Positions 13,177 through 30,709 are shown, numbered from the stretch's first letter. The stretch: 64,000 bases of DNA from Synechococcus sp. (GCA_047285805.1 JBJBCN010000002.1:416001-480000), one strand, 5' to 3'. Numbers and translations are program-made. The notes: generated by a model from the letters alone, not told the origin.

Positions 13177-13908
13177 ATGTTTTGGTTCCTTGATATCGTA
13201 TTTGTGACGCTGATCGGCAGCTGCCACTGGCTAATAAAGACACTTTCCGCAAGACCAGGTGCCTTAAAGACGCAGTTATCTTCATTTGGTGGGGGCGCAG
13301 CAATATCATATGTGTTCCTACACATATTCCCGGAGATAGCAGTTGGAGGTGCGGAGATCAGCAAGGCATCTGGAATGCACACCTATATCCCAAGTGAAGC
13401 CCTAGAGAGTCTTATATTTCTCGTTGCACTCATTGGAGCAGTGCTCCCGTATCTAATTAAGTCAGCAAGTCTTCGTCTTCATACGATGAAGGACTATTAT
13501 GAAAACGCGAATCTGACTAGATTTGCCTTGATAAACTATCTTTACGCGTATTCAATGCCATCATTGCTTACCACAGGATATGTGTATGCGCTTTCGTTCA
13601 CTATTGCGATTGCAGGACATGTACTGCTGTCAGATAGGTCAATGCTAGCGAAGCACCAATCTTCTTATTATAAGAAACTAAGGTGGATAGGTAGCCTATC
13701 CCTTGTTATCGGGACTGTGCATACATTTGCACTTCATCCGATTTCGGAACTAAATCTCGCATATATCAAATCATTTATTGGTGGGAGCTTAATTACAAGT
13801 GTTTTGCAAGAAGAAATACCGAAGCCAGATTCTTCTAGAGTTAGCTTCTTTTTGAGTGGACTGATCCTTATGACAGCAATTTTGATAACAAGAGGATTTG
13901 TAAAATAA
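13177..13908 (+). CDS. Polytopic membrane protein, ZIP-transporter-like
   Basis: SFGGGAAISYVFLHIFPE, AGHVLLSD, FIGGSLITSVLQEEIP; about 7-8 TM helices. Confidence 0.6.
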   Translation: MFWFLDIVFVTLIGSCHWLIKTLSARPGALKTQLSSFGGGAAISYVFLHIFPEIAVGGAEISKASGMHTYIPSEALESLIFLVALIGAVLPYLIKSASLRLHTMKDYYENANLTRFALINYLYAYSMPSLLTTGYVYALSFTIAIAGHVLLSDRSMLAKHQSSYYKKLRWIGSLSLVIGTVHTFALHPISELNLAYIKSFIGGSLITSVLQEEIPKPDSSRVSFFLSGLILMTAILITRGFVK

Positions 13909-14039
13909 GGATACAAGGGACTATATTAAGTCATGGGCATGGTCATGGAAAAAGTCAGAGATAGGAACTGCAAAACGCTTGATTAAATCTTCAGGTAAGC
14001 AATGATCCATCAATTGATACTTAATCGATCACTAAAAAG

Positions 14040-15683
14040 TCATCTACCCTCAAGATGTCGTAGGTCAACAAAATCAAGTATAGAAGACGAGTATGACAAG
14101 TTATACGGATTCATCCCTTCAAAGTAACCGGATCGAGTAGAGGACTGAATATTAACCACAGACGAGAGAAGGGAGCTAAGATTACTGGTATAACCTGTCA
14201 TTGAGGAAGAATAGTCATTTAACCTCTGGACCAAGGTGGTAATATCCGAGAACCCAGCCTTCAAAGCGACAAGCGTGTCATAGAAAGCTTTTTGAGAAGA
14301 CTTAATAGATTGATCACTCGCAATAAGTTCATTTGAATAGTTAATATAATTAGAGTAATATTGATTACTAGACTGTATGGTGTCAAGTGCAGATTGCTTT
14401 GCAGACTCCTTGGTTGATGATGCAGTCCTCCTTTGTGACCGTGCTGAAAGTGCATCCGCTCCAGAATCGAATAATTTCCAACTCATTGTGATAGCAATAC
14501 TATTACCCCATCCTGAATTGTCAGATTGTGAATAGCTGTCAATAGGAAGAGTACCGCTGTAAGGGGCTTCGCCGACAGTCTTGTATGAATAGGATGTTGA
14601 TGGAGACCAACCAAAGGATAGACCAAAGCTTGGTAGATAGCTAGACAAATAGTAGTCTGATTGACGTAGATAACCTAAGTAGCTATAATAACTACTATAG
14701 ATAGTATCGGAATAGATAAGGCTTGACCGAACAATCTCTTCACGACCTAGAGAGCTGAAACCAATTAAATCAGATATAGTCTTACTCATAAAGAACTTGG
14801 CTGAAATGGTCAACTCGTCAGAAGAAATGCCTATGTTAGATGAAAGAGAGGTATAATAATTATTGAAAGAAATAATAGCAGAAGAGAGATTATTCTGATA
14901 TAGACGCAGTTGAGCCAAGGACTGGGCAACATCTGGGACCGCGAGAAGTCCAATTTGATACTGTGCAACTGTCACCTTAAGCGATTCTGAGGCCGAGTAG
15001 ACGTTTTGTAGTTGAACAAGTATATCTTGGTAAGCAATCCAGACATTTATAGCATCAAGAAGGGATGAATTGTACTGAGATATGTCAGATGCAGTTGAAC
15101 TATATGCTGTAGAAAAGGAAACGTTGTTATAGTACCTAGCCAGGTTTATTGCTGTAGGATTAAAGATTGGGATAGAGAATGTTGGTTTAATACCCCTACT
15201 GTAAATCTGGCTTGAAGATGTATCGTATTCTTGAGTTTGACTTGGTTGGCCAGCTGCTGGAGTTGGGTATGTGAGAGTAGACGAACCTGTATAATTGTAT
15301 GACCATGAACCAGAATCCAGGGAAAAGCTCGGAGCAAATGCTTCTAGAAAGTAGGAACTACGTAAATCCTTGGAAGCCATATAAGAAAAATCAGCTGCCT
15401 TAATATTTGGAGAACGCTTTGTTTGTATGATTACATCATCTAGGGTCTCCAACAAAGGCGAATCGCTAGACTCATTTAAATAAAGGATTGGTTGTGGACA
15501 ATACTCCTTGAGACTCAGTAAACCTAATGCGACTCTCACAAAAGGTTCTCGGTCTAAGCAAAGTAATCTACTGATTGTTGGCTGATTGACTTTTCTAAAA
15601 TTGCGTAACTTAATTTGCTCTGCGTTTGCAGGTAAAACTGAGCTCAAGATAAGTGAAAAAACAAGCGGGATTCTGAAACGCAC
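14040..15683 (-). CDS. TolC-family outer membrane efflux protein
   Basis: Two OEP-like repeats: FSIPIFN...AQYQIGLLAVPDVAQ and MSWKLFDSG...LKAGFSDITTLVQ. GTG at 15683 yields the signal peptide MRFRIPLVFSLILSSVLPANA. Confidence 0.8.
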   Translation of the reverse strand: MRFRIPLVFSLILSSVLPANAEQIKLRNFRKVNQPTISRLLCLDREPFVRVALGLLSLKEYCPQPILYLNESSDSPLLETLDDVIIQTKRSPNIKAADFSYMASKDLRSSYFLEAFAPSFSLDSGSWSYNYTGSSTLTYPTPAAGQPSQTQEYDTSSSQIYSRGIKPTFSIPIFNPTAINLARYYNNVSFSTAYSSTASDISQYNSSLLDAINVWIAYQDILVQLQNVYSASESLKVTVAQYQIGLLAVPDVAQSLAQLRLYQNNLSSAIISFNNYYTSLSSNIGISSDELTISAKFFMSKTISDLIGFSSLGREEIVRSSLIYSDTIYSSYYSYLGYLRQSDYYLSSYLPSFGLSFGWSPSTSYSYKTVGEAPYSGTLPIDSYSQSDNSGWGNSIAITMSWKLFDSGADALSARSQRRTASSTKESAKQSALDTIQSSNQYYSNYINYSNELIASDQSIKSSQKAFYDTLVALKAGFSDITTLVQRLNDYSSSMTGYTSNLSSLLSSVVNIQSSTRSGYFEGMNPYNLSYSSSILDFVDLRHLEGR

Positions 15684-15841
15684 AGAAATAACATCACTAT
15701 TTTTTGCCTTATAGGAGTCATCGACATTAACGTCAATAACACAGAAAGCGAAAAAACAATATTGTAACAATATCAAGAATTGCATCACTTGTTTGATGGT
15801 CAGGCGCCGATGAGTATCTTGCAAATATTAATAAGTTGTTT

Positions 15842-17077
15842 ATGGAACCATCAAAAGGCGAAGACATCGACTCCGTATCCAAGCACAATGGAGATCTAAA
15901 CTCAAAAATGGACAAATCAGATCCGTTACGATATAGTCAAAGCGTAAATATACTCATCACACCAATAAAATACTGGTCTGGATTGGCAGTCATTACTTCT
16001 GTCGGACTTCTAGGTTGGTCTGTATTTGGAAGGATACCCGAGAAAACCACTTCTAGTGGATTTATAACAAAACCATTTTTATTGGCTTCTGTTGGCCAAT
16101 CAGCCAGTAGCGACGGAACATACTCAAGTATCTTGGTAAAGCCTGGTGACAAAGTAGTCAAGGGTCAGTTACTCGCGAATCTTGCATTCCCAGCCCTATT
16201 GCAAAAAGTTGACGAAGCTAGAACTCAACTGAAAATTGGTAAGACTCAGCATCAATCACAGTATGAGACACCTTCATTTCAAAACTATTTGAATGAGCAG
16301 AAATCATCAGTCGACTCATCTAAGAAATATCTTATTGCAGCTCAAGGCATTGCAAAAACTGGGGCTATATCTGAGACGACAGTAAGGAACGCAAAACAAA
16401 GCTATCAAAGCTCAGTGCAATCACTGCTGTCGACTCAGAGTAAAGTGATCGAGTCAAACTCGAATATAGCAAAACTTGAAACGACACTAAATGCTGCTAT
16501 TACTACGCAAAAAGAGGCTTCAAATATCTATTCACCATATACAGGCATAGTATTAAATATCTTTCGGTCAAGCGGCCAACCTAATGTTCCGGGTAAACCA
16601 TTACTTCAGCTAGAAATAAATGCTAACGGGCAACCTTCACCGCAACAAAGTGATGGTTTAGCTGTTATTTCATTTTTTACTCCAACAGCCGCTGCTAAGT
16701 TATTGGTCGGACAAGAAGTACACATACTTCCCTCAAACATTCAGGCAAATACAGTAGGTAACGTAGTTGGAAGAGTATCAGAAATATCACTCTTACCCCT
16801 TACTCAGTCAGAGGCATCTGGAATTCTCGGTTCACAAGAGTTAGCTACCGAGCTTCTTCAAGATAACAAAAACATCCAGGTCACTATCGACCTGGAAGAA
16901 GATAAACAATCTCCTTCTGGCTTCAAGTGGATCAATGGGTCAGGACCTCCATCAACTCGTCCCTCACAATTCCCAAGGGTTGGCCTACAAGCTCAGGTTT
17001 CTGTGATTACTAAACGAATTCCCCCAATCACACTTGGTGTTCCGGCGCTCAAGAAATTCTTTGGTATTAGCTCATGA
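15842..17077 (+). CDS. NHLM/NHLP bacteriocin-system secretion protein (HlyD-family membrane fusion protein)
   Basis: N-terminal TM ending WSVFGRIP, VKPGDKVVKGQLLA, coiled coil, IYSPYTG, SPSGFKW..GSGP, C-terminal PITLGVP. Confidence 0.88.
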   Translation: MEPSKGEDIDSVSKHNGDLNSKMDKSDPLRYSQSVNILITPIKYWSGLAVITSVGLLGWSVFGRIPEKTTSSGFITKPFLLASVGQSASSDGTYSSILVKPGDKVVKGQLLANLAFPALLQKVDEARTQLKIGKTQHQSQYETPSFQNYLNEQKSSVDSSKKYLIAAQGIAKTGAISETTVRNAKQSYQSSVQSLLSTQSKVIESNSNIAKLETTLNAAITTQKEASNIYSPYTGIVLNIFRSSGQPNVPGKPLLQLEINANGQPSPQQSDGLAVISFFTPTAAAKLLVGQEVHILPSNIQANTVGNVVGRVSEISLLPLTQSEASGILGSQELATELLQDNKNIQVTIDLEEDKQSPSGFKWINGSGPPSTRPSQFPRVGLQAQVSVITKRIPPITLGVPALKKFFGISS

Positions 17078-19272
17078 ATTTCAAGACACCTTCAAAAATC
17101 CAGGTAGAAGCTATTGAATGTGGAGCCGTTTCATACTGGATTATTAATGGTTTCTACAATAACTGGCTCACAAGTGAAGAAGCAAGAATAGATGTGAATG
17201 TTACAAAAGATGGATCAAATGCATACAATATTGTCCAAGCACTCAAGAGAAAGGGTTTTGATTCAGATGGTTTTCAACCTACCATAGATGAACTCAAGAG
17301 TAATAATCCGGAGTGCGGTCTTCCATGTATTGCTTGGGTAAATAAAGTCCATTGGGTTGTTCTAGAGAAGTTCGATGGGACAAGTTTTTTGATCAGCGAC
17401 CCAGCTAAGGGCCATAGAAAGTCAACTCCTGCAGACTTTGAAAAGGAATACTCAGGCCTAACACTAAGCGCACGTCCTACCAATACCTTCAAACCCCAAG
17501 GCACTAAACCCAATGCGATAGTTGATCTTGTCAGCATTGTTTCTTCCAACAAGAAAGCCATTGCACTTTATGTACTACTTGGATTAGTACTCACTATCCC
17601 CGTAGTGTCCTTAAGCTCATTTATCGGATTTTTTACAGACACGATCCTTGCCGAATCTGGTGCGAGCAATAGTTACATCTGGATCCTAACATTTATAGTA
17701 GGGCTATTCTTTCTTGGAAAATTCCTAGAGCAAATCATTCTGAGAAGGCTTCATTTGTCCGTATTGGCAGCATTGATCCAGAGAACTATCACGAAACTTC
17801 TCTCTCTTCCACTCTCTTTTTACCCACTCAGAGACCTTGGCGAGATAAGTCAGCGCATTACACTTAATATTAGCCTCTCAAATATTCTTACGGGCCCCTT
17901 ATCCAAGGCCTCCGTAGGATTAGCAACGATGGCGATATATGCTGCAATAATGCTGACATATAGTCCAATTCTTGGCATCCTTGTAATACTTCTGGGCGCA
18001 ATAAACTTTTATACTCTAATTAGCCTCGCAAAATCATTAAGCCAGTTCTCACAAAAGAGTTCCATGATGACGGGAAAGATGACATCTAATATTCTATATA
18101 TGGCCAATAACTTTCAATATCTGAAAGCCAATGGACTCGAGCTACCCCTATTTCAACAATGGAGCGATAACTTTTCTCAGTCTCAAACAACAAGCGAGCA
18201 AATGTCCTATATCCAGAAACGCAATACTTCAACTACTTCATTCCTTAATCAACTCGCCGATTATTTAATAGTGATTGTCTCTGGGCTCTTCATAATGATG
18301 GGAAATATTAGCTTAGGTGAATTCATCAGTTTCAGGCTCATATCACTCGCATTCTTGAAACCGATAAATACTCTTGCTGGAGTTAATTCTAAGTTCGCAA
18401 CAGCGGTTGGTGATGTCAACCGGCTGAAAGACTTATGGGATGAGAAGGACGATACCGTAGTCAGAAATTCTTACAAGATGATTGATCAGACTTCTTTTGA
18501 ACTTGACATTAACACAGCATTAAATCTTGTAAGTAATTCAAGCATTAGCCTAGATTCTGGAGGTTTTCGATACACACCAGGTTCACCACCTGTCTTTGAA
18601 GGCATTTCGCTCAATGCACAACATGGTGATGTCATTTCTCTTACTGGGCCACCAGGATCTGGAAAGACAACGCTTTTACAATCTCTGTCCTATCTCACAG
18701 ATCTCGATTCGGGCTCGATTACATTGTCGGACTCACCTATTGGTTCATACGCTCCATCGTTGTTAAGAAGCACCTTGTCCTTCACTTCTCAAGACAAGTA
18801 TATATTTACTGCATCGGCACTGGAGAATATCAAAGTCTTCGATCCACAGATTTCTCAAAGTAATATCTTAGATACTATCGAGCTTTATGGTCTTGCTTCA
18901 ATCTTAAGCTCTCTTCCTCAAGGACTTGCCACTGAACTTGGCCCTTCAGTACAAATAAGCAATTCCGATAAGATTATCATTCACTTACTTCGAAGCCTTG
19001 TCAGAAATCCCAGAATCCTAGTCATAGACGAGCTACTGGCTGACATAGATTCGGATTTCGCTCAGTCTTTACTTATCAGGATCTCCCAGAATATTCCGAT
19101 TGTTATCTTTGTATCACTGGATCCTAATTTAATTTCAATTGCAAATCGATCTCTCGTCTTGAGTTCAAAAGGTCTGCAAGAACTACCCCCACCAGAACTT
19201 ATCACGCGGATTAAAGCGCGCCAAGAATCACAATCTAAACCCCAAACTCAGTACAAGGAGGCTTCCAAGTGA
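17074..19272 (+). CDS. NHLM-type ABC transporter with C39 peptidase, TM and ATP-binding domains
   Basis: QVEAIECG (catalytic Cys), VHWVV (His), ISDPAKG (Asp); TM domain; Walker A GPPGSGKTT and Walker B ILVIDE; ATGA overlap with the HlyD gene. Confidence 0.92.
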   Translation: MNFKTPSKIQVEAIECGAVSYWIINGFYNNWLTSEEARIDVNVTKDGSNAYNIVQALKRKGFDSDGFQPTIDELKSNNPECGLPCIAWVNKVHWVVLEKFDGTSFLISDPAKGHRKSTPADFEKEYSGLTLSARPTNTFKPQGTKPNAIVDLVSIVSSNKKAIALYVLLGLVLTIPVVSLSSFIGFFTDTILAESGASNSYIWILTFIVGLFFLGKFLEQIILRRLHLSVLAALIQRTITKLLSLPLSFYPLRDLGEISQRITLNISLSNILTGPLSKASVGLATMAIYAAIMLTYSPILGILVILLGAINFYTLISLAKSLSQFSQKSSMMTGKMTSNILYMANNFQYLKANGLELPLFQQWSDNFSQSQTTSEQMSYIQKRNTSTTSFLNQLADYLIVIVSGLFIMMGNISLGEFISFRLISLAFLKPINTLAGVNSKFATAVGDVNRLKDLWDEKDDTVVRNSYKMIDQTSFELDINTALNLVSNSSISLDSGGFRYTPGSPPVFEGISLNAQHGDVISLTGPPGSGKTTLLQSLSYLTDLDSGSITLSDSPIGSYAPSLLRSTLSFTSQDKYIFTASALENIKVFDPQISQSNILDTIELYGLASILSSLPQGLATELGPSVQISNSDKIIIHLLRSLVRNPRILVIDELLADIDSDFAQSLLIRISQNIPIVIFVSLDPNLISIANRSLVLSSKGLQELPPPELITRIKARQESQSKPQTQYKEASK

Positions 19273-22001
19273 CAATTCAACCATCATCAATAACCTACTA
19301 TACTAGAGTTTCCTGCAACATACCAGTGCCAACATCAGATGGCACTCTAAAGTATCACCTACTTGATCTCTTGCCAGGTTCGATAGATTCGTCATTCTGG
19401 CGTCAACTCATACCCACATTAAATATCGCATTCGAGGAACTTCCAGCCCTAGATGTTGCTGCAGCTTCGCTTTCTAAATATGCATCTGACCCTGGCAATG
19501 AGTATGAAGTTACGCGAAAGATTCTTGACAACCTCTATCTTAATGTTCGTCTCTCACTTTCAAAAAGTCGTCAAGCAGACATCTCCTTTAGAGAGTCTTC
19601 AACCCTTTCAGTTGATGCACCGACACAACGAAAGATTATCTCTAATCAATCTCTCTACCTTGCGCGTATCGAATCTGAAAAGGGTCTTCAGGCGTTTTCA
19701 ATTAATGATGAAGTGGGGGCAGTCAATGCTCCAACAAGATTACTTTTGCCTTCAGGTTCAAGTGTTACCATCTTTGGACAAACAAGCTGCAATATTCTCA
19801 CGACTCTCAGTAATGATGACATTCAAACACTTGTCGATACAATCGCCCATCTCCAGCTTTTACTTGTTCAGGATATAATATCTCGATCTAGGAAGTTAGA
19901 AGCAGACGAGTCTAAGGCCTATAGCTATGCCCTTCAGGCTTTGGAAGAATATATACCTCCATCTCTTAACAAGTCTGATTCAACAGTCTTATCTACAACC
20001 AGTGACTTTGACAATGTCTTTTACTGTGCTGGTGCTGTAGTCAGAAAGGAATCTCAAGCCTCCAATCTATATACGTCCGTCTCACTTGCAGACTGCACTA
20101 CAGAATATGACGCACTTGTTAAGTTGCTAAATGTTTCGTCAGTTCCCTATCGGATATCTGATCCACCTAATGTTTTTGCCGATAACCGTACCTATCTCTT
20201 TGTCAACGAAGATGAATCAGTTACTGCTCATGTTCGAACATCTTATGGATACCGAATAATCTCGAATACTACTACTACTCAAGCTAGAGATGGAGAACCG
20301 CACCCATCTGGGCAGATTATTACCATCTATCCAATTACTCCCGATAATGGAGGCCCTTGGAGCTTTATAAAAACTGGCCTTAGAGATGCTAATGGTCCGT
20401 TGCTTTCTGTGGTCGGGATATCACTCCTCCTTTCAGCAGCGACACTTATTCCTGCTTTTCTGATTGATCAATTGACATCATTATACATTCCTTATGGTAA
20501 CTACTATTCTCTAGTTTTTTTTGGTGTATCAGCTATTGCAGTTCTTGGAATTACGTATATCATCCAACTTCTCCAAGCACGTTACTTAGTCAGATTCGAG
20601 CTTATTACTGACTCTAATCTCCAGACAATGATGGTGGATAGGTTCCTCCGAATTAAGGTCGACGAAGTCGCTTCATACTCTCCTGGAAGTCTTCAAAACC
20701 GAATAATGGGTATATCACAACTTCGATCAACGATCACCTCTAATCTGACACCAATCTTGACCGCTTATCTATCAGTCATCTTCAACTTTATATATCTATT
20801 CGTCTTTTCATGGCAATTGTCGCTCGTCGTAATGGTAGCTGGAGCTCTACTGGGAACAGCTACATTTTGTGCAGCTCAGCAAAGACTAGTTTACTTTAAG
20901 CAGCTCACTGAGCTCGATGGCAAGCTTCTTGAATATACAAATGATTCCATTAATGGTATCCAAGTTCTCAGATCAACTGGAACAACTGATGAACTCCTGT
21001 CCCGTTTTACAAAAGTTGTAAAACCCCTTATCTCAGCAATCTTTAATGCAACTCGTCTACTTAATAGAGTAGACACGCTTTCTGGCTCAACTACTTACAT
21101 ACTGTATATCTTCTTGCTTCCCTTTGCATATCACCTTTCCCATTCAGGCGATTCTGGAGGACGTGTTTTAACGATAGGTGCCACAGTAAGCTTCCTCACC
21201 TGTACCCAAACTTTCCTTTCAAGCTTCGAATCGGCAATTGATAAGTCTATCTCAAGTTTTGTACAGGTGTCTACATACTGGTCTCGTGCAATGGATATCT
21301 TACATCTGCCTGCTGAGCCAGCGCATCTTGAATCAACACCAAAGAATTTTGATGGCTCATTGTCAGCAACTAATCTTGGATTTGTTTATCCATCCAAAGG
21401 TAATATCTCAAATAGGCCGGTCTTTAGCGGGCTCAGCTTTGAATTGAAACCTGCCACTTCTAACCTTATTCTTGGATCATCAAGATCTGGCAAGACAACA
21501 TTGCTTTCTGTCCTATCAGCACTTCATGATACTTACGATGGAACTGTCACGGCTTCTGGACATGACTTAAATACTATGTCACCACGTATTTATCGGTCTT
21601 TCATTTCCAATGTCCCTCAAAACCTTGTGATGAAACAAGGCAGCCTTAAGTCAAACATTAGCTCTGGCGTTTCTGTCTCATCTGATGAGATCGGATCACT
21701 CCTCGAAACCTTTGGGCTTAGTCAGTTCGTTGATTCTTTGCCAATGAAGCTTGGTACCGTAGTTAGTCCAAAGGCTTCGTCAATACCTGTACAGTATAAG
21801 AAAAGACTATTTCTCCTGAGAGCTGCTCTTAAGCGTTCCAAATATGTCTTCATTGATGATGCACTATCTGGTCTTCCTAGTAATGACATACAAAAAGTCT
21901 TGAACTACTTCACTTCAAATGGCGCCACTGTCTTAGCAACGTCATCGAATAGCAGTCTATCTACATACTTTGATCAGACGTTTAGTCTCGACAAGTCTTA
22001 G
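19269..22001 (+). CDS. Second NHLM-type ABC transporter subunit (long N-terminal region, TM domain, degenerate NBD)
   Basis: About 350-aa N-terminal region, TM domain, GSSRSGKTT, LPMKLGTVVS, VFIDD; GTGA overlap; gene order matches the NHLM export triad. Confidence 0.85.
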   Translation: MTIQPSSITYYTRVSCNIPVPTSDGTLKYHLLDLLPGSIDSSFWRQLIPTLNIAFEELPALDVAAASLSKYASDPGNEYEVTRKILDNLYLNVRLSLSKSRQADISFRESSTLSVDAPTQRKIISNQSLYLARIESEKGLQAFSINDEVGAVNAPTRLLLPSGSSVTIFGQTSCNILTTLSNDDIQTLVDTIAHLQLLLVQDIISRSRKLEADESKAYSYALQALEEYIPPSLNKSDSTVLSTTSDFDNVFYCAGAVVRKESQASNLYTSVSLADCTTEYDALVKLLNVSSVPYRISDPPNVFADNRTYLFVNEDESVTAHVRTSYGYRIISNTTTTQARDGEPHPSGQIITIYPITPDNGGPWSFIKTGLRDANGPLLSVVGISLLLSAATLIPAFLIDQLTSLYIPYGNYYSLVFFGVSAIAVLGITYIIQLLQARYLVRFELITDSNLQTMMVDRFLRIKVDEVASYSPGSLQNRIMGISQLRSTITSNLTPILTAYLSVIFNFIYLFVFSWQLSLVVMVAGALLGTATFCAAQQRLVYFKQLTELDGKLLEYTNDSINGIQVLRSTGTTDELLSRFTKVVKPLISAIFNATRLLNRVDTLSGSTTYILYIFLLPFAYHLSHSGDSGGRVLTIGATVSFLTCTQTFLSSFESAIDKSISSFVQVSTYWSRAMDILHLPAEPAHLESTPKNFDGSLSATNLGFVYPSKGNISNRPVFSGLSFELKPATSNLILGSSRSGKTTLLSVLSALHDTYDGTVTASGHDLNTMSPRIYRSFISNVPQNLVMKQGSLKSNISSGVSVSSDEIGSLLETFGLSQFVDSLPMKLGTVVSPKASSIPVQYKKRLFLLRAALKRSKYVFIDDALSGLPSNDIQKVLNYFTSNGATVLATSSNSSLSTYFDQTFSLDKS

Positions 22002-23337
22002 TCCACCGATCCAATATCTCTTCAAGATCCGTTCTTGTTGGATTCATAACTTTCTTGCAACCTGATTCCCTCGCTTCTAATTTCTGAACCTCTAATGTCT
22101 GTTTTATTATCTTTCTTGTGATACTGATTCCAAGTCTTGAGATCGACTTATATAGTAGCATTGCCAATCTAATGATTGACTTCCTCTGCATGATCTCATC
22201 TATCGATGATAAAGTTCTAATTGAGTCAAGGTAGCTCGATATCGCAAAACTGTTTCCCTGCGAAGTCAACAACAAACCTTCCATTGTATCAACTATATAT
22301 TCACGTATAGCATATCTTATAAACGCGGATCGGACTAGGTAAGTCTTCTTATAAGCACCTGACAAGCTTCCCCAATCACGTCTCTGGATCAAGTCACTTA
22401 TAAACTGATTCAAGTCACTGCTAATCACAGTAATATCATTGCGGATACCCTCTGCAAGTAGCAACTGTCTATAAAGCTGTTCCTTCATTACGTCAGCATG
22501 TAGATTAGTATCCAGTATTGTGAGATCTCTAACCGACTGTGTCGACAGTGTCAGCCCATCAAGTTCAGAGTCTCTCGTATCAATATAGACATATGGAGCG
22601 AGTACAAAGTCATCTATAGCACTCTTGCCTGACCTGATACTCTCCACAGATCTATCTATCTCTGCCTGTGTGATGTATTGCGCATTTCGTTGAGGCAGTA
22701 CAAGCAACTCTGCTTCCCGGATAGTCATTTCTAGATCAATACTCTTATAGTCTATATACTCCTCCTTTAAGACCCGAACTACGTCTTTGCTAGCAGAACC
22801 AGCCACTCTATCCATATATTCTTCTATACGCTTCCAGTCTCTCTCCCCAAATGATAGTGTCGAAAGATAACTAACAAGCAAATCTAGGTGATCCTTTAAC
22901 TCTCTATCTTCTACCTTTTCTGCTAATATTCTTAAGTTGATTAATGGTATGCTCAAATGTCTGTAGCCTGCTTCGTTTAACTCATGCAGTAGTCCTACCT
23001 CGTCATCACCTGTACTAGGATTCTCAATATAGTAGCTGTATACGTCCCCAAAGCCGATCATTCCACAAGACTGCATTTCTACAGCTCGTAATGCACCCAT
23101 GCTTGAACAACCAATAACAGTGTATCCAGATTCAATAACCTCTTTTATCTCCCGATGAAGAATGGCGAATTCTTCAAAAAAGTATCCATCTACTACTACT
23201 AACACCTCTACAGAACTATTCTGCATTACATAGTTAACTAAGTCCCCTGCCTTTGCAGGTGGCTGGATGTCCCAACCACAGAAGATATCTTTACTTCCTG
23301 AAGATGGACCTACAAATACAGTTCTCTTATTGATCAT
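21982..23337 (-). CDS. tfuA: TfuA-like protein 2 with C-terminal extension
   Basis: VFVGPS, PPAKAGDL, VDGYF, HREI, GCSSMGALRAVEM, GMIGFG, DDEVGLLH, PLINLR. ATG at 23337 overlaps the ycaO2 stop (ATGA). Confidence 0.92.
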   Translation of the reverse strand: MINKRTVFVGPSSGSKDIFCGWDIQPPAKAGDLVNYVMQNSSVEVLVVVDGYFFEEFAILHREIKEVIESGYTVIGCSSMGALRAVEMQSCGMIGFGDVYSYYIENPSTGDDEVGLLHELNEAGYRHLSIPLINLRILAEKVEDRELKDHLDLLVSYLSTLSFGERDWKRIEEYMDRVAGSASKDVVRVLKEEYIDYKSIDLEMTIREAELLVLPQRNAQYITQAEIDRSVESIRSGKSAIDDFVLAPYVYIDTRDSELDGLTLSTQSVRDLTILDTNLHADVMKEQLYRQLLLAEGIRNDITVISSDLNQFISDLIQRRDWGSLSGAYKKTYLVRSAFIRYAIREYIVDTMEGLLLTSQGNSFAISSYLDSIRTLSSIDEIMQRKSIIRLAMLLYKSISRLGISITRKIIKQTLEVQKLEARESGCKKVMNPTRTDLEEILDRWTKTCRD

Positions 23338-24356
23338 AATGGGAAGCCTGTCAACATAGATCCTTGCCGAAGACTTGGTGACGGCCAAGCAAATACTTTG
23401 CACACATGCACCGGATCTATCGGGAACCTTGTCTGTATATCTACGTACCCGATCTGAATACCCTGCCTGTTCGCCGATTCAAGCAACTTGTTTCTCGTAT
23501 CTATACTGTACTTGTTCGACTCTATCCCTTCATGTCCTATATAGTCAATAACTTCACTCGTTCGTTCCACCGTATCTGTATACTCTTCATACTGAGCTGC
23601 GTAGAACCAGTCATCTCTCGAGGCTGCAATTCTCATCAACCACGTCTGCATTGCCTCAGCTATACAGTCAGTAATTGCTTGTTGTGGACAGTCACCAAGT
23701 CCAAATGCATTAAAGCCACCAGTGACACTTCTTTCTTTTGACTCAATTGAGCATACCGAAATAGGCCAAGCTGACTTATATACATAACACCTTAGGTCAC
23801 TCACCTTCTTCTTCATCTGAATAATCAACTCTCTATTGTGTGACGATAGATGATCTAAGCTTAACTCGTATCTCTCGGCCCTAGATATGATTACTCGTTC
23901 TACAACTTCTACCAAGCCAGATACTAACGCAAGCTCACTGTTAGTATGAGCACCAAGCCCAGTAGTACCCATTGGATACTTGTTTACCAGTCTAAGCGGA
24001 TTATTTAGCCTATACTCTACTGATTCTAATGGGAAATACTCGACAGATCCATTAAGAGCATTCTTACCAACTATACAGTTCACTTGATTAGATAATCTAT
24101 CATCTTTAATTGGCAAGCTACTCTGACGCCTGACTGTCTCATTGTCTACATTCTCTGACGCATATCTTTCAATTGCCTCAACTGCTGTTGCCAGCCACGC
24201 AGTTTCATCGGTCCATCCTTTACCGCTGTCAACAGTCAAGTGAATCGCGCTTGGCCGACATGACTGGTAGACATGAATTGGAAAGTCGTCATATCCGCTT
24301 ATACAACCAATCCTAGTAACCCCAATGTTATTCAATACAGACTCTATTTCACTCAT
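23334..24356 (-). CDS. ycaO: YcaO-family protein 2 (TfuA-associated type)
   Basis: GVTRIG, CRP, DSGKG, EAIER, TTGLGA, EVVER, EAMQT...AASRDD. Confidence 0.88.
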   Translation of the reverse strand: MSEIESVLNNIGVTRIGCISGYDDFPIHVYQSCRPSAIHLTVDSGKGWTDETAWLATAVEAIERYASENVDNETVRRQSSLPIKDDRLSNQVNCIVGKNALNGSVEYFPLESVEYRLNNPLRLVNKYPMGTTGLGAHTNSELALVSGLVEVVERVIISRAERYELSLDHLSSHNRELIIQMKKKVSDLRCYVYKSAWPISVCSIESKERSVTGGFNAFGLGDCPQQAITDCIAEAMQTWLMRIAASRDDWFYAAQYEEYTDTVERTSEVIDYIGHEGIESNKYSIDTRNKLLESANRQGIQIGYVDIQTRFPIDPVHVCKVFAWPSPSLRQGSMLTGFPL

Positions 24357-25725
24357 TGTAAAATCCTTTCAGAAGTGCCGAGATCGACTGATAGCATCTC
24401 TCTTCATCAAGCAGGGTTATAATCTGTCCGAACTCATAGCCTCTTCTATCTCGGATGCACTCGTCCAGTATTACACTTAGGAGTACATACCATCTATCCT
24501 TATAACCACATGACTTTAACCATCCACTGTCAAAACTAGCCATATCAGCGCTGGGATTCACCAATCGATATCTGCTTCTCCAAGCAAGATATACGAGGGG
24601 GTCGTCACTCTTGGTCGATCTATCCAATACTGGGATCGTTATATCTTGTCTTTGGCCCAAATACATTCTTATAATATTCTCATAGCTCACCTCTGCCCCT
24701 CTACCTATAAGTCTAAATTCTGGCCCCGACTCGATCTGACAATTGTATCTCCGGATAATACCTTCGCAATAACTTGCCCGTAAGATATCATTATCTATAT
24801 TGCAATTCCCGAACACCTTAATCTTATCTGCTAGTTGACTTATGTTGATATAAGCTCCTCTTTTCTCGTCCCAGCCTGTTTCCACAATACACTCCTCTTC
24901 GACATATTCTGGCAAGCCGTTCCACCTATTTACTATGGGCATACACCCATTGAGTGCACACTCGATAACGACCTTTCCTTGCGTCTCTTCCGTCGTCGTA
25001 GAAAGTACTATGCAAAGTGAACTCTCTCTAAATAACAAGTCCCTCTGTCCTGTATCTGAATCAAATATCCATTCTATACATACATTTTGATCATTAGCCA
25101 CTTGCTTTAGTTGATTCAAATAATGATAGCTCTTCTCCGATTGATCAGAAAAGAGACATATAGCCATCGTTGGTTTCTTACGTAGAAGCCCGACAGCTCT
25201 GATGGAGTCTACAATATTCTTCGTATATTCAAGTCTTGATACAACTACTATTCGATTCTTTCTCGCTTCGATGTGCGCACTTTTCAAGGAGGATATACGT
25301 ACTGGCTTAACGATGCCCCTCACTCTTGCACCTACTGGTAGGAAGTTCTCTACAAGATCCTTAGAAAAGACCGTGTTAAATACTAATGTATCTCCAGAAC
25401 TCATGAGTAGCACTACAGACCTTATGTATTTCAAGCGACTAACTATAGTATTAATATAGTAGTGCAGGGTTATATCCTTCCGAGCTCTGTTCCTCCACTC
25501 CATTAAATCATCCCAATACTCGCATACAAACATTGATGGCCATATCTCAATATCGTTAAAATGGGACAGGTAGCTTTCCAGGCTACCTATCTCTTCCTTG
25601 CAACTAAAACTATATACTAATACGTTAATCCCTTCCCTTGACCTGTCAGACACGAAATAGTCATTGAACACCTTGGCTGTTGCATTCTCGTTCTCTGACC
25701 CGTGAACTAACCGTACTATAACCAT
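24349..25725 (-). CDS. GT-B fold glycosyltransferase, GT4-like
   Basis: VSRLEYTKNI and the E-x7-E motif ETQGKVVIE followed by GCMPIV...GLPE. Confidence 0.78.
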   Translation of the reverse strand: MVIVRLVHGSENENATAKVFNDYFVSDRSREGINVLVYSFSCKEEIGSLESYLSHFNDIEIWPSMFVCEYWDDLMEWRNRARKDITLHYYINTIVSRLKYIRSVVLLMSSGDTLVFNTVFSKDLVENFLPVGARVRGIVKPVRISSLKSAHIEARKNRIVVVSRLEYTKNIVDSIRAVGLLRKKPTMAICLFSDQSEKSYHYLNQLKQVANDQNVCIEWIFDSDTGQRDLLFRESSLCIVLSTTTEETQGKVVIECALNGCMPIVNRWNGLPEYVEEECIVETGWDEKRGAYINISQLADKIKVFGNCNIDNDILRASYCEGIIRRYNCQIESGPEFRLIGRGAEVSYENIIRMYLGQRQDITIPVLDRSTKSDDPLVYLAWRSRYRLVNPSADMASFDSGWLKSCGYKDRWYVLLSVILDECIRDRRGYEFGQIITLLDEERCYQSISALLKGFYNE

Positions 25726-27287
25726 CTACTTCTCTCCATACAAATATACATTATGGCTAACTGCCACATATCATGGAAGTACAATCCAAGCACATCATCT
25801 GTATTGCCTATCCAGAATAGATTCTTATTAAGTAGTGATCTCACATCCTTTACAGCTCTAAGGGCTTCCCCCTCTTCCAACGAATCAATATATAGTAAGT
25901 GTGGCCTCAACTGCTGTTCTTGACGCAAGAAAGTATTCCACTCTCTTACCCATTCTTCATATCTCTTACAGGCTAGAAGTTCCTCAAACAGTCTATTCCT
26001 ACCATAGCTATGGAATAGTACGTTTCCAGCCAGAAACTCTAGCAATATAAACAACCTCTCCTCATTCTCTATGTCTATAGACTCACCTCTGCATACACAG
26101 TCAACTATATGCTTCTCGTACCTACCCTTGAAGACCTGGCTACATATCCGCTCATCTCTCACATCTAATACACAATCTAACCACTCAACGGCAGAACTAG
26201 TAAACGATATTGCATCTTCTTTGCTTATCGTGGCTCCAGACGAGTTCGATCCACATTGAACTACTTTGTACCTTCTTATTGAATCATAAAGCCATTCCGA
26301 TTCTATTCTGTCTGTAAATGACCGTACTTCAATTGGAGGCTGTCTTTCGGCTCTAAGTATTTTACTCACGGCATCCTGCCTACAGAACATTGAGGTAACT
26401 TCACATTCTTCACTGCTTGTCTGACCTTTTAGCCTCGCCATGTCATCCACTAGGCTCCTCGTCCAAGTCTTTATGTATAATTCATGAACAATAGCGGGTG
26501 AACGTAAAAAGCAAAATATCATAAAATTGGAGATCGTATTAGCATGATCTGAACTCTCCGATATATTCACGACACGCGAATCTTTACTTAGCTGCCTTGG
26601 AATATATGGAGTCCATGCAACACTAATGTTGGAAACTGTATTACTTTTCCCCAACTCGCCTAGCCTATAAAGCGTTAAGAGGCTCTCTAGATCATTTCGT
26701 TTCTGGGACTGAAAACGATCTACGCATCTATTACTAGCCTCTTTCCCAATTAATGCTTCCATATCTTTCTTTATCTTACCCCATGTTCTTTGCTCAAAAT
26801 AACACAACTTCTCTCTTTCTATAAGGATACTCTTGATTTCACGATCTATCATGCCAACATCTTCCAAATGGTTAAGCCAGAAATATATCTCTACAAATGC
26901 CACCGTTGTTGGTTTCCAGCCTTCATCCTCTCCCATATGCAATAGCGCGACGTCGGAATCGTCACGTATACCATTCTTAAAATATTCATATATCTTGCCG
27001 TAGCCCTTCATTCCAAAACAATCTAGTTCTGAGGCTCTTAGTGCACCAAGGGAGGAGACCCCATAAATATTCTTGCCAGCCTCCAGAGTTAATAAAAACT
27101 CTTTGTGCCACGGTGCAGGTATTGTCTTGTATAACCCGTCTGCAACAATTATGTTCTCAATATCTTTATCTGTGAGATCTTCGAATAAATCAGACTGCTT
27201 GCATGGGCCTTTTAATGTTATTCCTTCAACTAGTGATTCTTTGATTCCATAAAGGCTTGGACCAGCGTATAAGACTGTATTTGACAT
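25716..27287 (-). CDS. tfuA: TfuA-like protein 1 with ~300-aa C-terminal extension
   Basis: LYAGPSL, ADGLY, WHKE, GVSSLGALRASEL, GMKGYG, DDSDVALLH, QKRND; TAATG overlap with ycaO1. Confidence 0.92.
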   Translation of the reverse strand: MSNTVLYAGPSLYGIKESLVEGITLKGPCKQSDLFEDLTDKDIENIIVADGLYKTIPAPWHKEFLLTLEAGKNIYGVSSLGALRASELDCFGMKGYGKIYEYFKNGIRDDSDVALLHMGEDEGWKPTTVAFVEIYFWLNHLEDVGMIDREIKSILIEREKLCYFEQRTWGKIKKDMEALIGKEASNRCVDRFQSQKRNDLESLLTLYRLGELGKSNTVSNISVAWTPYIPRQLSKDSRVVNISESSDHANTISNFMIFCFLRSPAIVHELYIKTWTRSLVDDMARLKGQTSSEECEVTSMFCRQDAVSKILRAERQPPIEVRSFTDRIESEWLYDSIRRYKVVQCGSNSSGATISKEDAISFTSSAVEWLDCVLDVRDERICSQVFKGRYEKHIVDCVCRGESIDIENEERLFILLEFLAGNVLFHSYGRNRLFEELLACKRYEEWVREWNTFLRQEQQLRPHLLYIDSLEEGEALRAVKDVRSLLNKNLFWIGNTDDVLGLYFHDMWQLAIMYICMERSRWL

Positions 27288-28468
27288 TATCCAGCTGCCG
27301 GTGAATGTATCTCTCTTGAGATCAAGTTAGCACTTTCAAGATTAAGTCCACCAAGTCGACTCAGATTTCTATATCCATTGTAATTATACCCATGAAGCCC
27401 TTCAACAAGTACCCTTACAACGTGAATCATCTCGTCAGCTTGATCATACGTGTGTATATAAATGCTCTCTCCATGTTCACGCACTACTTCATCCACGATC
27501 TGTTCTAATGATGGATTATCTCCTAGTGTCCCCTTCCTTAAATCGACCCCATCCCCTACTCTCTTCCCAATCTTGTCCTTAGGAAATGTAGTCAGATATA
27601 GATCCTTGTTCATATCTTCTCTAGATCCCGAAATTGATATTACTCTTGCTTGGTGAGCTTCTGTTATTGCCCTGGTTGCTGCAATTACTCCGTTTGTATA
27701 AGTACCATATCCACACCATGCTTGCATGCCATCCGATATGAGGCACTTATAAGTCGGAAATGCTTCCCAAATAGTGTTATCGTACAAACCAACGACTATA
27801 TTGCTATCTACTGACAACTTATCTCCCAATACCTTCAGTTCTCCTTCTTTCAGCACTGCGCTATCAACTTCTATATCTGTCGATCGCCCATTCTGTTCAT
27901 TCAACGTTATACAATGTCTTTCTATTACCTCGTGTATACCTGATCTGCATGCATCATCCCAGCTTATCCCCGACGCTAGTCCATTTGATGACAAATAAAA
28001 GCATCCTCTTTTTCTCGGATTTGTCATCCTTCTAAAATCCAGGCTTACGCTGTCAAACGGTATGTAAACTTCTTCCTTTGTGATCATGTCAATCGCCGTT
28101 GACCATTTTTCCTTGCTATTTCTTGTATAATCGATCATTGTTATAGCCAAACGATCTACCGAGCATATTCGACCTTCTAACTCACTCTCTTTACATTCTA
28201 TAGTCCAATCTGCTTCTTCTGCGATATGGCATTCAAAGCTTTCCATTAATGCAGATATATTTGCTTGCAGCTGAGTAACACCTTTGCCTCCACTCTGCGA
28301 CAACACTTTTGAATTTGGCCTGTAGGCTATTGATACACCTAATTCTTCTTTTACAAACCCACTAATACTTGCCAACCGTGATACAGAAAACTTACTCTTG
28401 ATCGTATTTAGATACGTGAGCAAACTCTCTGATGCAGTCTTGTTTTCCTTAATTCTGGTTTCAATCAC
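27287..28468 (-). CDS. ycaO: YcaO-family protein 1 (TfuA-associated type)
   Basis: YRPNS, SGGKG, SALMESFE, SSNGLASG, EVIERH, GYG, RAITEAHQAR...SGSRED, VRVLVEGL. Confidence 0.93.
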   Translation of the reverse strand: MIETRIKENKTASESLLTYLNTIKSKFSVSRLASISGFVKEELGVSIAYRPNSKVLSQSGGKGVTQLQANISALMESFECHIAEEADWTIECKESELEGRICSVDRLAITMIDYTRNSKEKWSTAIDMITKEEVYIPFDSVSLDFRRMTNPRKRGCFYLSSNGLASGISWDDACRSGIHEVIERHCITLNEQNGRSTDIEVDSAVLKEGELKVLGDKLSVDSNIVVGLYDNTIWEAFPTYKCLISDGMQAWCGYGTYTNGVIAATRAITEAHQARVISISGSREDMNKDLYLTTFPKDKIGKRVGDGVDLRKGTLGDNPSLEQIVDEVVREHGESIYIHTYDQADEMIHVVRVLVEGLHGYNYNGYRNLSRLGGLNLESANLISREIHSPAAG

Positions 28469-28472
28469 GCTT

Positions 28473-28516
28473 AAAAAAAAAAGCTGACGATCGCTCGCAA
28501 TGGCGATTGTCAGCTT
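28473..28516 (-). terminator. Intrinsic terminator/attenuator between the precursor gene and ycaO1
   Basis: 14-bp stem with one mismatch (28481-28494 with 28503-28516), 8-nt loop and a 10-nt U run on the minus strand (28473-28482). Confidence 0.82.
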
Positions 28517-28540
28517 ATCTTATCTTGTTTGAACTACAGG

Positions 28541-28750
28541 TTATGCGCCAGCAGCACCAGCTGCAACACCAACTCCTGCCCATTCGACAGTGCTCCCACC
28601 AGCGGCCTTTTGAAGGTCTACACCGCGCGTCTTGACAGCCTCAGCCATGTGCTCCTTTTGGAATTTGCTCCCAATCTGACCCATGAGCTCCGGCGTAGGA
28701 CCACTCTTCTTGAGTTCATCCAGAAAAGCATGAGCGTTTTCGACTGACAT
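28541..28750 (-). CDS. Nif11-like leader RiPP precursor peptide (52-aa leader, GG site, 17-aa core)
   Basis: MSVENAHAFLDELK resembles the Nif11 N-terminus; DLQKAAGG is a double-glycine site; core STVEWAGVGVAAGAAGA; directly upstream of ycaO1, with a C39 exporter in the cluster. Confidence 0.88.
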   Translation of the reverse strand: MSVENAHAFLDELKKSGPTPELMGQIGSKFQKEHMAEAVKTRGVDLQKAAGGSTVEWAGVGVAAGAAGA

Positions 28751-28820
28751 GATTTACATGCGGGTACCTTGTAAGGCTAGCCATGGCCTTGATGGATGCC
28801 AACTCGCATGTAACGAAAGG

Positions 28821-29483
28821 CTAATCTTTGCTAGACCCCCATACTGCTGAGGTGCATTCTTTGATACCAAGCTTCTTTCTCACCGCTTCAGTCTTAAGCG
28901 ATAGATCATCTTCTAAATGTCTTAAGCCACAGTATTGACTTGCTTCAAGCCCTTTGGACAACCCATCAATCATTGCTTTTATATGTTGCATGCTTTCCTT
29001 TGTCGGCTCCTTTAAATGACTTGCAATCACTTTAAATAATATAATTGCTGATAGGGTCGTCATTGATTGACCTGCGTAGAAAGCCTGAAGCGCAGTTTCA
29101 CCAAACGGTGTCGTATTGTAGCCAGTAAGCACATGTAGGATGTCGTGCGTATGTCGTAATCTTGTCCTTACATATTCTTGCCGGCTCATTTGAGAGTTCA
29201 CTGGAAACCTTATCATTCCAGGAATACTATGTATAAACTCTTGCTCTTCAGACATTCTCATCAGATGCATTCCGAGATCTTTCCCTAATGTTCCCTCCTC
29301 CATGAATATCAGGTCATCGAGACTGTACTCAGAAGGTCTCCACCTTTCCATAGCATCATCTGCAATAAATGAGTGCAGATGAACGACCTTCCACTGATTC
29401 GAGGCCGCTAATTCCTCCGCTTCAACCCTGATCTCACCAAGTTGGACATCTCTTTTAAACAGATCACCTATTTGTAGTGCCAT
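28821..29483 (-). CDS. Coq4-family protein
   Basis: EGTLG and RLRHTHDILHVLTGY...GETALQAF (HDxxH...E metal-binding motif), C-terminal VRKKLGI. Confidence 0.8.
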   Translation of the reverse strand: MALQIGDLFKRDVQLGEIRVEAEELAASNQWKVVHLHSFIADDAMERWRPSEYSLDDLIFMEEGTLGKDLGMHLMRMSEEQEFIHSIPGMIRFPVNSQMSRQEYVRTRLRHTHDILHVLTGYNTTPFGETALQAFYAGQSMTTLSAIILFKVIASHLKEPTKESMQHIKAMIDGLSKGLEASQYCGLRHLEDDLSLKTEAVRKKLGIKECTSAVWGSSKD

Positions 29484-29530
29484 TCATAGTCTCATTTCTT
29501 ACACTATACACACTATGTCGCCAGTCTTAA

Positions 29531-30334
29531 ATGTCTTCATCATTTGATGTTTATCGTTTTTTTGATCGTCACCCATCGTTTGACTGCATCCTTCCTCTTT
29601 CTTCGTCTAGCTACTTAGTCCGTTCTGGCTCTACATTCTATTCTTGTCATCATTTCGTCACCTTTCATTCGCTTCACAGTCTTTATAGCCTTTACCTTCA
29701 TTTTCTTACCCTCTCTCAATCTACTTTTATCTCCCTGCCCCCATTGTCTGAGATCTTCCAGCTTCCTGATAACAGTTGTTTGCTCATAACTGAGTTTATT
29801 TCTGGTCGTAGACCCTCCTTTTCTGAGCTCTCGTTTCTTCTGCCAGAAATGGTTTCATTTGGTTTAACGGCTACATCTTCCTCTCCACCTTCTGATCACC
29901 TTATTCCTAAAACCCCTAACTCCTTTGAGCTTTTGCGAGCTCAAATACAAGCTTCTCCTTGCTTTCACTCCCTACCCGCTTGTCTTTCACGCTTTCTCTT
30001 GCTTGACCCTCCTCATGGTTCCCTTTCTTTTTGCCATGGAGATTTTTTGCCTCAGAATCTTGTCATTGATCGTCATGACAATGTTTTTCTAATTGATTGG
30101 GAGTTGACAGGTCTCTCCATCCAGCAGTTTGACCTTGGCTGGCTCAATGCTTATTGCATTCTCTCTAGCCTCTCGCTCCCATTTGCTGAATCATCATATC
30201 CCCACGCACTTGATTATTTCACCAGATTTGGGCTGGTTCGATTTGCTTATCGAATCCTCCAGCAGTCGCTTCCTCAAAAGATGACTAGTGAGCGGATGCT
30301 CACTATCATCTCTCTTTTTAATAGATCTATCTGA
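29531..30334 (+). CDS. Aminoglycoside phosphotransferase/choline-kinase-like phosphotransferase
   Basis: LITEFISG, CHGDFLPQN, LIDWE, FDLG. Confidence 0.8.
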   Translation: MSSSFDVYRFFDRHPSFDCILPLSSSSYLVRSGSTFYSCHHFVTFHSLHSLYSLYLHFLTLSQSTFISLPPLSEIFQLPDNSCLLITEFISGRRPSFSELSFLLPEMVSFGLTATSSSPPSDHLIPKTPNSFELLRAQIQASPCFHSLPACLSRFLLLDPPHGSLSFCHGDFLPQNLVIDRHDNVFLIDWELTGLSIQQFDLGWLNAYCILSSLSLPFAESSYPHALDYFTRFGLVRFAYRILQQSLPQKMTSERMLTIISLFNRSI

Positions 30335-30400
30335 CGGCTATCTCCTTTTATCTTCCTGCCTTGTATTACCTGTGGAATCTGTTGGGACAAACTTTGTTTC

Positions 30401-30709
30401 TTGACCTTAACCTCAAGTGTAGCTTCTTTGCCCTTGCCTGCCTTTTTCTTGCTTACTCTTGGGCATCGCTTTGATGTCCTTTTCTTATTACGTACTCCCA
30501 CTTTTTGTTATTTGTCTCTCTCCGGTTCTGCGTATTTCATCATGCGCGGGTGTCGTCCATTAATCATAGACTCTCTCCTTATTCCTGTTTCACTCTCTTT
30601 ACTCTTTGCTATTTCTATTTCATACAACCTCTCTAATTCACTATGCACTCTAGCGCTTTCAGTGCTGATCTTTTGTGCGTCTTCTCTGTCGCTCACCTTT
30701 CGCTCCTGA
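30401..30709 (+). CDS. Small hydrophobic hypothetical protein (doubtful)
   Basis: 102-aa Leu/Ser/Phe-rich ORF with a TTG start; the composition may simply reflect pyrimidine-rich DNA. Confidence 0.2.
   Translation: MTLTSSVASLPLPAFFLLTLGHRFDVLFLLRTPTFCYLSLSGSAYFIMRGCRPLIIDSLLIPVSLSLLFAISISYNLSNSLCTLALSVLIFCASSLSLTFRS

Follow-up and report, generated by a model that had tools for sequence, protein, structure and literature searches.

Results

A low-GC island with two YcaO-TfuA pairs

The window analysed here, a 64-kb stretch of DNA from a Synechococcus sp. with a genome of 2.37 Mb (C2:416001-480000), carries a low-GC island with a small precursor gene, two adjacent ycaO and tfuA pairs, a GT4 glycosyltransferase gene and the genes of a peptidase-containing exporter. 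Together these probably constitute a horizontally acquired pathway for a thioamidated peptide that is made on ribosomes and modified after translation (RiPP) and is of the Tha-1 type. A sequence-only reading of the window had proposed a RiPP cluster with YcaO-TfuA thioamidation, and this proposal is supported by the two pairs, by a leader ending in Gly-Gly, by the C39 peptidase and by the presence of ThiS in relatives of the cluster; product and enzyme activities are named below as predictions. All 12 genes listed in that reading are present as intact, open frames at the place, on the strand and in the order given there (Table 1). The start of tfuA2, which had been put at 23403, is more likely at 23337, giving a protein of 451 aa and a 4-bp overlap with the ycaO2 stop. 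The other overlaps of stop and start codons described for the ycaO1-tfuA1-GT4-ycaO2-tfuA2 operon measure 1 bp (ycaO1/tfuA1), 10 bp (tfuA1/GT4) and 8 bp (GT4/ycaO2), and both pairs are translationally coupled. The genes for HlyD, the C39 subunit and ABC2 overlap by 4 bp each, and ABC2 and tfuA2 are convergent with a 20-bp overlap. The island, also recognized earlier as AT-rich, is evident from a GC content of about 0.41 from about 12.2 to 30.9 kb (0.39-0.45 in single GC windows) compared to 0.58-0.66 in most flanking GC windows and about 0.62 in the genome.

Table 1. Features of the island and its gene cluster (positions in the window)
Feature	Position	Strand	Evidence or remark
Low-GC genomic island, between ppa and M32 carboxypeptidase gene	12200..30900 (edges approximate)		GC
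TolC-like outer-membrane channel	14040..15824	-	PF02321 E 3e-14
HlyD-type adaptor, NHLM type	15836..17077	+	TIGR03794 147 bits, cut-off 156
C39-peptidase ABC subunit (ABC1)	17074..19272	+	C39 plus ABC domains; Cys16, His93
Second ABC subunit (ABC2), TIGR03797-like	19269..22001	+	ABC domain
TfuA2, 451 aa, TfuA domain and helical C-terminal domain	21982..23337	-	PF07812 E 7e-30
YcaO2, 340 aa	23334..24356	-	PF02624 E 4e-21
GT4 glycosyltransferase, cluster-specific subfamily	24349..25725	-	Glycos_transf_1 E 3e-9; E-x7-E motif intact
TfuA1, 523 aa, long helical C-terminal region	25716..27287	-	PF07812 E 2e-29
YcaO1, 393 aa, core thioamide-forming candidate	27287..28468	-	PF02624 E 5e-40
Stem-loop and U10 between precursor and ycaO1	28473..28516	-	RNA folding against shuffles
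Precursor, Nif11-like leader and 17-aa core	28541..28750	-	weak Nif11 match, Gly-Gly
Coq4-like metal-binding protein	28821..29483	-	Coq4 E 4e-10; H-D-x-x-H...E motif invariant
APH/choline-kinase-fold phosphotransferase	29531..30334	+	APH E 3e-9; HGD..N and DWE motifs invariant

Precursor peptide and hairpin

The precursor has 69 residues, namely a 52-residue leader ending in Gly-Gly at residue 52 and, as anticipated, a 17-residue core behind it. The core begins with Ser1 and Thr2, its only two Ser/Thr residues, and has Trp5 followed by a run of Val, Gly and Ala; it has no Cys and an unmodified mass of 1472.73 Da. In the cluster family defined below, 19 of the 20 distinct precursors that have a Gly-Gly site carry a Trp in the core, at position 5 in the GT4 branch and at position 6 in the ThiS branch; this count leaves out three leader-like open reading frames (ORFs) lacking such a core, two in locus L037 and one in L038. 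The Trp is preceded by Ser, Thr or Cys, and in most precursors the Val/Gly/Ala run comes after it. The description of the leader as Nif11 holds in part: the Gly-Gly end is there, and the cleavage site adjoins NHLM-type exporter genes in the manner of the Nif11-like family, but the scores lie under both curated cut-offs (15.8 against 23.8 bits for PF07862, 13.6 against 32.3 bits for TIGR03798). For this reason we call the leader Nif11-like only. Among five family relatives, two give similarly weak Nif11 matches and three give none.

The terminator predicted after the precursor corresponds to a minus-strand hairpin (a stem at 28481-28516 followed by 10 U) with a z score of -2.74, equalled in stability by 2 of 200 shuffled sequences, though terminator-like sites are not enriched over the whole region (11 compared to 12.8 in shuffles). 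By eye, a hairpin plus T-run also trails the precursor gene of genome G098, which is described below. The element is probably a leaky terminator or an RNA stabiliser.

Two side observations concern leaders. The host genome (G000) has 11 other Nif11-domain matches above cut-off, but the only C39-ABC in it that matches the cluster exporter (E<=1e-45) is the one described here. In L037, a 284-aa ORF (7875-8729, minus strand) joins a cluster-family leader and a duplicated core-like stretch to a domain of the 2OG-Fe(II) oxygenase type at its C terminus (E 3.5e-16); it sits beside three ordinary precursors and could be an assembly or frameshift artefact.

The two YcaO-TfuA pairs and sulfur supply

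YcaO1 is found in all family loci and aligns with the thioamide-forming archaeal YcaO structures 6PE3 and 6CI7 over all three ATP-site motifs. The Arg of motif 1 is replaced by Cys, and this Arg is also missing in most outgroup TfuA-type rows of the alignment. TfuA1 has invariant H-K-E and S-x-G-A-L-R motifs; the conserved Ser and Lys/Arg of TfuA are presumably catalytic. Models of TfuA1 and TfuA2 both match 6XP8 in the N-terminal domain. For the C-terminal domains no fold was found, with PDB matches restricted to the N-terminal domain and nothing consistent from Pfam, and an Atlas search returned either no usable match or TfuA clusters at 0.75. Between the tails of TfuA1 and TfuA2 there is no alignment, nor does either of them align with L040. 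By eye only, the TfuA2 tail has a SurA-like look.

Directly upstream of ycaO1, a ThiS ending in Gly-Gly is encoded in 4 of the 22 sequences searched (L032, L033, L037, L038). The host genome has a close ThiS homologue (C2:837932-838243, E 5e-23) as well as ThiF/MoeB, outside the cluster.

The second pair is present in seven of nine informative loci (window, L028 up to ycaO2, L030, L032, L033, L037 and L038). YcaO1 and YcaO2 are only 24% identical and form separate clades of 11 and 17 rows (99* each in a quick version of the tree), and therefore represent an old two-enzyme arrangement; recent duplication of ycaO1 was rejected as the origin of ycaO2 on these grounds. Further 90% clusters number 30 for YcaO2 and 24 for TfuA2. 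The metal-binding Glu residues are kept in both YcaOs, and both are under purifying selection, with a ratio of nonsynonymous to synonymous substitution rates (dN/dS) of 0.10-0.24 where computable; for the second pair it is 0.10-0.25, and saturation of dS affected 4 of the 14 comparisons. TfuA2 follows YcaO2 in every locus that reaches that far and has an invariant Ser79. In the window its H-R-E is the same as in 6XP8, to which its model (predicted local distance difference test score 79) matches with Z 23.2 over residues 3-216.

Relatives and distribution

TfuA occurs in 5 of 401 host-family genomes, the cluster only in the host and G098, and the YcaO1 profile matched in 2 of 45 genomes of the genus. 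The G098 cluster comprises aph, coq4, precursor, ycaO1, tfuA1, GT4 and exporter, with no second pair. It lies three genes further on and is inverted, with the orientation of the carboxypeptidase and osmC genes unchanged, and its proteins are 27-57% identical to those of the window, compared to 63-97% for the flank proteins. The shifted, inverted position and the lower identity point to separate insertions of the cluster in the two genomes.

A metagenome scan yielded 98 confirmed loci from 227 candidates, and 80 were kept. The cluster family makes up 19 of these 80 (L022-L039, L045) and spans a GC content of 0.25 to 0.50; judged by GC alone, the lowest-GC loci may be Prochlorococcus-like. An integrase adjoins the cluster in L027. 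The remaining 61 have distant YcaOs (26-32%), most with short TfuAs, and only L040 has a GT4 and a Nif11 precursor. This locus (8750-16239 of a metagenome contig) carries a Tha-1-like cluster of two Nif11 precursors ending in Cys-Gly-Trp, ycaO, tfuA, GT4 and a B12 radical SAM gene, and its GT4 matches the family profile at 1e-15. Scans of genome contigs gave no relative among 21 candidates with YcaO1 as the single query and one distant locus (L102) of 13 with alignment A1; none of 25 candidates from viral contigs was a relative, and phage records gave no match.

Three host-family genomes with TfuA (G021, G248 and G345) were rejected as relatives because they carry different clusters. In G248, ycaO and tfuA lie on another low-GC island together with ThiS, a MoeB-like gene and an NHLM exporter that is canonical (L020 6229-20000 and L021); a precursor gene was not recognised there. 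Other ycaO-tfuA pairs are found in G345 (L017 8801-19285) and G021 (L019), the former flanked by ORFs of 263 and 1923 aa with similar starts that look lectin-like by eye.

Tailoring genes and two branches of the family

Counted over loci whose DNA reaches far enough, GT4 lies after tfuA1 in seven (window, G098, L022, L023, L027, L028 and L030) and is absent from four (L032, L033, L037 and L038). A coq4-aph pair is present in six of the seven GT4 loci, the seventh, L022, showing coq4 at the contig end, and in none of the four loci without GT4, within 7.8-20.7 kb of DNA. In L030, coq4 and aph have been relocated jointly and lie downstream of tfuA2. All four loci without GT4 have ThiS before ycaO1, and the two that extend past tfuA2 carry a sulfotransferase. 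Since the loci are kin, the GT4/ThiS pattern amounts to one split and not to many independent events. Strong matches to the kinase subfamily occur only in the two cluster-bearing genomes of the 401, plus one weak match (1e-9), and the GT4 profile matches no other host gene at E<0.01. GT4, the kinase and the Coq4-like protein all have conserved catalytic motifs. Being cluster-specific and co-occurring, these genes are best counted as part of the cluster, as had been suggested.

In four loci (L026 613-1143, L027 2956-3453, L028 1912-2409 and L045 1985-2482), the gene after aph is small and resembles 2OG-Fe(II) oxygenase genes, with weak Pfam matches for the two that were scanned; none was seen in the window island. 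In the 16 island ORFs scanned, to which the search of the host genome for HopA1 was confined, Pfam gave no match to decarboxylase or HopA1 families.

A conserved exporter with degenerate ATPase sites

The dedicated exporter of the earlier proposal is present in all its parts, C39-ABC, ABC, HlyD and TolC, and the catalytic Cys16 and His93 of C39 are invariant in five of five family sequences. The ATPase is less ordinary than was assumed there, because both subunits have degenerate motifs. None of the ten family sequences (five per subunit) retains the LSGGQ signature, the SALD D-loop or the switch His. Their Walker A is intact; a Walker B Glu is left in one of them, the C39 subunit of the window. 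Other C39-ABC genes of the host family served as controls. The 28 that score best, from 79 matches spread over 67 of 401 genomes, all have signature, Walker B Asp-Glu and His; ABC2 was compared with a single control, the canonical pair of G248. From the loss of motifs we infer that the ABC pair hydrolyses little or no ATP.

The degeneracy is common to loci of GC 0.28 to 0.44. The ABC subunits are the best conserved proteins (46-57% compared to 35-48% for YcaO1 in the same comparisons), and dN/dS of the ABC2 nucleotide-binding domain is 0.19 (G098 and L023, one unsaturated pair). In the L024/L030 pair, the nucleotide-binding domains evolve faster than the membrane parts; for the nucleotide-binding domain of ABC1, dN is 0.256 compared to 0.094 for the rest. 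Peptidase exporters are reported to couple export to ATP hydrolysis (PMC11491471), and in known heterodimers, TmrAB for example, one of the sites is degenerate (PMC8277102). A doubly degenerate peptidase-ABC exporter was not found described in the literature searched, which is weak evidence of absence.

Comparison with known systems

We regard the window cluster as, most plausibly, a relative in picocyanobacteria of Tha-1 from Desulforegula conservatrix, which lists two precursors, YcaO, TfuA, a glycosyltransferase, a radical-SAM methyltransferase, ThiS and ThiF, and which gave one thioamide when refactored and expressed (PMC9576775). The two share a Gly-Gly Nif11-type precursor, the listed order precursor-YcaO-TfuA-glycosyltransferase and transporters (PMC9576775, PMC8120280). 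The Tha-1 cores have Trp5, then Val-x-Val-Gly and an Ala/Gly run (PMC9576775), similar to the Trp5-Val-Gly/Ala core of the window; counted from the Trp, seven residues in the relative L028 are identical to theirs. The window lacks the second precursor, the Cys-Gly-Trp ends and the radical-SAM methyltransferase, whereas the second pair, the shorter leader, the core without Cys and the Coq4-like and kinase genes are not features of Tha-1 in the published description. The earlier impression that the combination has no characterised precedent is thus not supported, since Tha-1 with a similar gene list and core gave a thioamide. A further cluster listed there, Tha-2, combines two YcaOs with a single TfuA and a sulfotransferase and was not produced (PMC9576775).

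TfuA clusters with Nif11-like precursors, GT4, NHLP transporters, ThiS/ThiF and two tfuA or several ycaO genes have been reported (Malit 2021, PMC8120280). The cyanobacterial examples are from Nostocales, Oscillatoriophycideae and Gloeobacteria, one supplement has no occurrence of Synechococcus, Prochlorococcus or Cyanobium, and none of the figure legends examined has two complete pairs together with a Nif11 precursor, GT4, Coq4 and kinase as in the window. YcaO-TfuA thioamidation combined with an APH-family phosphotransferase is reminiscent of thioviridamide-type pathways such as that of thiostreptamide S4, where the kinase and a HopA1 protein dehydrate Thr and a decarboxylase makes AviMeCys from the C-terminal Cys (10.1101/2020.12.17.423248). 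Unlike these, the window has no core Cys and no HopA1 or decarboxylase match in the island. The exporter resembles NHLM exporters (TIGR03794/03796/03797, its best NCBIfam matches) in HlyD, C39-ABC, ABC plus TolC and in the intact C39 Cys/His (Haft et al., 2010, PMC2887384), but scores under all three cut-offs and differs by the motif loss described above. Picocyanobacterial YcaOs with Nif11/NHLP precursors are also known from marine Synechococcus (Arias-Orozco et al., 2023, PMC10783134). Those clusters are of azol(in)e type with SagB, and TfuA does not occur in the main text of that survey. Neither the E1/SagB partners of azol(in)e peptides nor LanM, as for prochlorosins, was found in the island. 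In the mostly openly accessible literature searched, we found no description of the cluster family or of a Coq4-like RiPP enzyme.

Surroundings of the cluster

No tRNA genes were found in the window, and promoter-like sites are at chance level (43 compared to 44.9). The true start of TolC is probably 150-250 bp inside the annotated ORF, whose homologues align only from residue 60-84. At the left end of the island, an ORF at 13177-13908 (+) encodes a 243-aa membrane protein without Pfam or NCBIfam match, which we take to resemble a ZIP-type transporter; it was rejected as a part of the cluster because related loci have no homologue. A 240-bp stretch at the left edge (12373-12605) is 73% identical to C2:1145872-1146110 and is perhaps a mobile-element remnant. 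Outside the island, a small membrane-protein gene at 33158-33599 (+) has an in-frame TAG at 33386-33388, and the G098 copy is a whole 142-aa ORF; a pseudogene or a sequence error is the probable explanation.

Discussion

YcaO enzymes use ATP to O-phosphorylate a backbone amide, and TfuA frees sulfide from the thiocarboxylate of ThiS to replace the oxygen. In the pathway that we favour, the precursor would be made in excess, with the hairpin limiting read-through into the enzyme genes. The target of YcaO1 would be a backbone amide within the Val/Gly/Ala run that comes after Trp5, and TfuA1 would release sulfide from the thiocarboxylate of the ThiS encoded elsewhere in the host genome, supported by ThiF. 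YcaO2-TfuA2 would install a second, site-specific thioamide, giving one or two in total rather than a long run. The GT4-kinase-Coq4 module would most likely place a sugar and/or a phosphate on Ser1/Thr2, where the sister branch would use its sulfotransferase; for the Coq4-like step, oxidative decarboxylation or donor building is a guess. The C39 domain would cut after Gly-Gly, and the peptide would leave through an ABC-HlyD-TolC channel while the ABC pair would hydrolyse little or no ATP, probably to act as an allelopathic or signalling peptide. At least one thioamide in the product is likely, because Tha-1, with a near-matching core and listed gene order, gave one (PMC9576775), and a second from pair 2 is slightly favoured. 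Glycosylation falls a little short of an even chance, and phosphorylation is somewhat more doubtful.

Several observations weigh against this pathway. No ThiS was found in the window island, coq4 and aph are not part of the operon with ycaO, and two Coq4 paralogues that are unrelated occur elsewhere in the host in ordinary contexts. The site of the Tha-1 thioamide was not located, and neither glycosylation nor any other modification was seen (PMC9576775). The L040 YcaO falls outside the YcaO1 clade in the tree, and the link to Tha-1 therefore rests on core, GT4 and gene order, not on YcaO orthology. The second pair is absent from two of the nine informative loci, G098 and L023; its YcaO has lost the Arg of motif 3 in all 17 rows, where 35 of 38 other rows have it, and TfuA2 varies in the residue that follows its His (R13/K5/S3/A1 among 22 sequences), so that pair 2 may not make a thioamide. 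YcaO1-TfuA1 would then be the sole thioamide maker, with YcaO2 performing another backbone chemistry (amidine or azoline at Ser/Thr) or serving as a non-catalytic partner. The replacement of S-N-G by T-T-G in YcaO2, the loss of the Q-x-R Arg after motif 3 in 16 of 17 rows, E-R-V for E-R-D in the window and the lack of a PDB sequence match for YcaO2 all fit such a division of labour. We nevertheless consider it somewhat unlikely, as YcaO2 keeps all metal-binding Glu positions under purifying selection and always has its own TfuA where the locus extends, with Ser79 and, in the window, H-R-E intact.

The sequence-only reading had the core probably poly-thioamidated, with both pairs acting iteratively as in thioviridamide. 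Pairs of the thioviridamide type do act iteratively on Ala-rich cores, and the core here has a long Val/Gly/Ala run. Three or more thioamides are, however, quite unlikely and this claim is unsupported, since the closest precedent, Tha-1, with a similar core, received a single one (PMC9576775) and one or two sites fit better; the core also has no C-terminal Cys, and no decarboxylase or HopA1 match was found among the island ORFs. It is very improbable that the cluster is a linear azol(in)e pathway in which the YcaOs cyclodehydrate Ser/Thr and TfuA is incidental. There are weak TIGR03604 matches, and other Synechococcus YcaO clusters are of azol(in)e type (PMC10783134), but TIGR03266 scores higher and is the best match of YcaO1, each YcaO is coupled to a TfuA, the core has only two Ser/Thr, and the island has no E1/ThiF-like partner or SagB dehydrogenase. 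Decay of the island, with the degenerate exporter reflecting loss of function, would account for the missing ATPase motifs and the faster change of the ABC1 nucleotide-binding domain. It can hardly be reconciled with frames that are all open, with the same degeneracy in loci spanning GC 0.28 to 0.44, with ABC subunits that are the best-conserved genes, or with dN/dS of 0.03-0.25 wherever computable. One bolder version of the favoured pathway is unlikely as a whole: two specialised pairs, the second possibly with new backbone chemistry, and a Coq4-like tailoring enzyme would make a thioamide glyco- or phospho-peptide, exported through an ABC heterodimer that is hydrolysis-dead at both sites and functions as a channel, either passive or gated by ATP binding. 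If true, this exporter would break the rule that peptidase-ABC exporters need ATP hydrolysis.

In conclusion, the cluster stands out by two old YcaO-TfuA clades, swappable tailoring modules and a doubly degenerate exporter, for none of which the literature searched gave a description, a precursor-YcaO-TfuA-glycosyltransferase arrangement being already known from Tha-1. The pathway would extend thioamidated RiPPs to picocyanobacteria, where the main text of a recent survey of marine Synechococcus makes no mention of TfuA (PMC10783134). Two distinct YcaO-TfuA pairs and one 17-residue core provide a testable case for how thioamide sites are chosen, and the Coq4-like protein is a possible new RiPP tailoring enzyme. 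The exporter, conserved yet doubly degenerate, may serve as a natural experiment to ask if ATP hydrolysis is required for peptide export.

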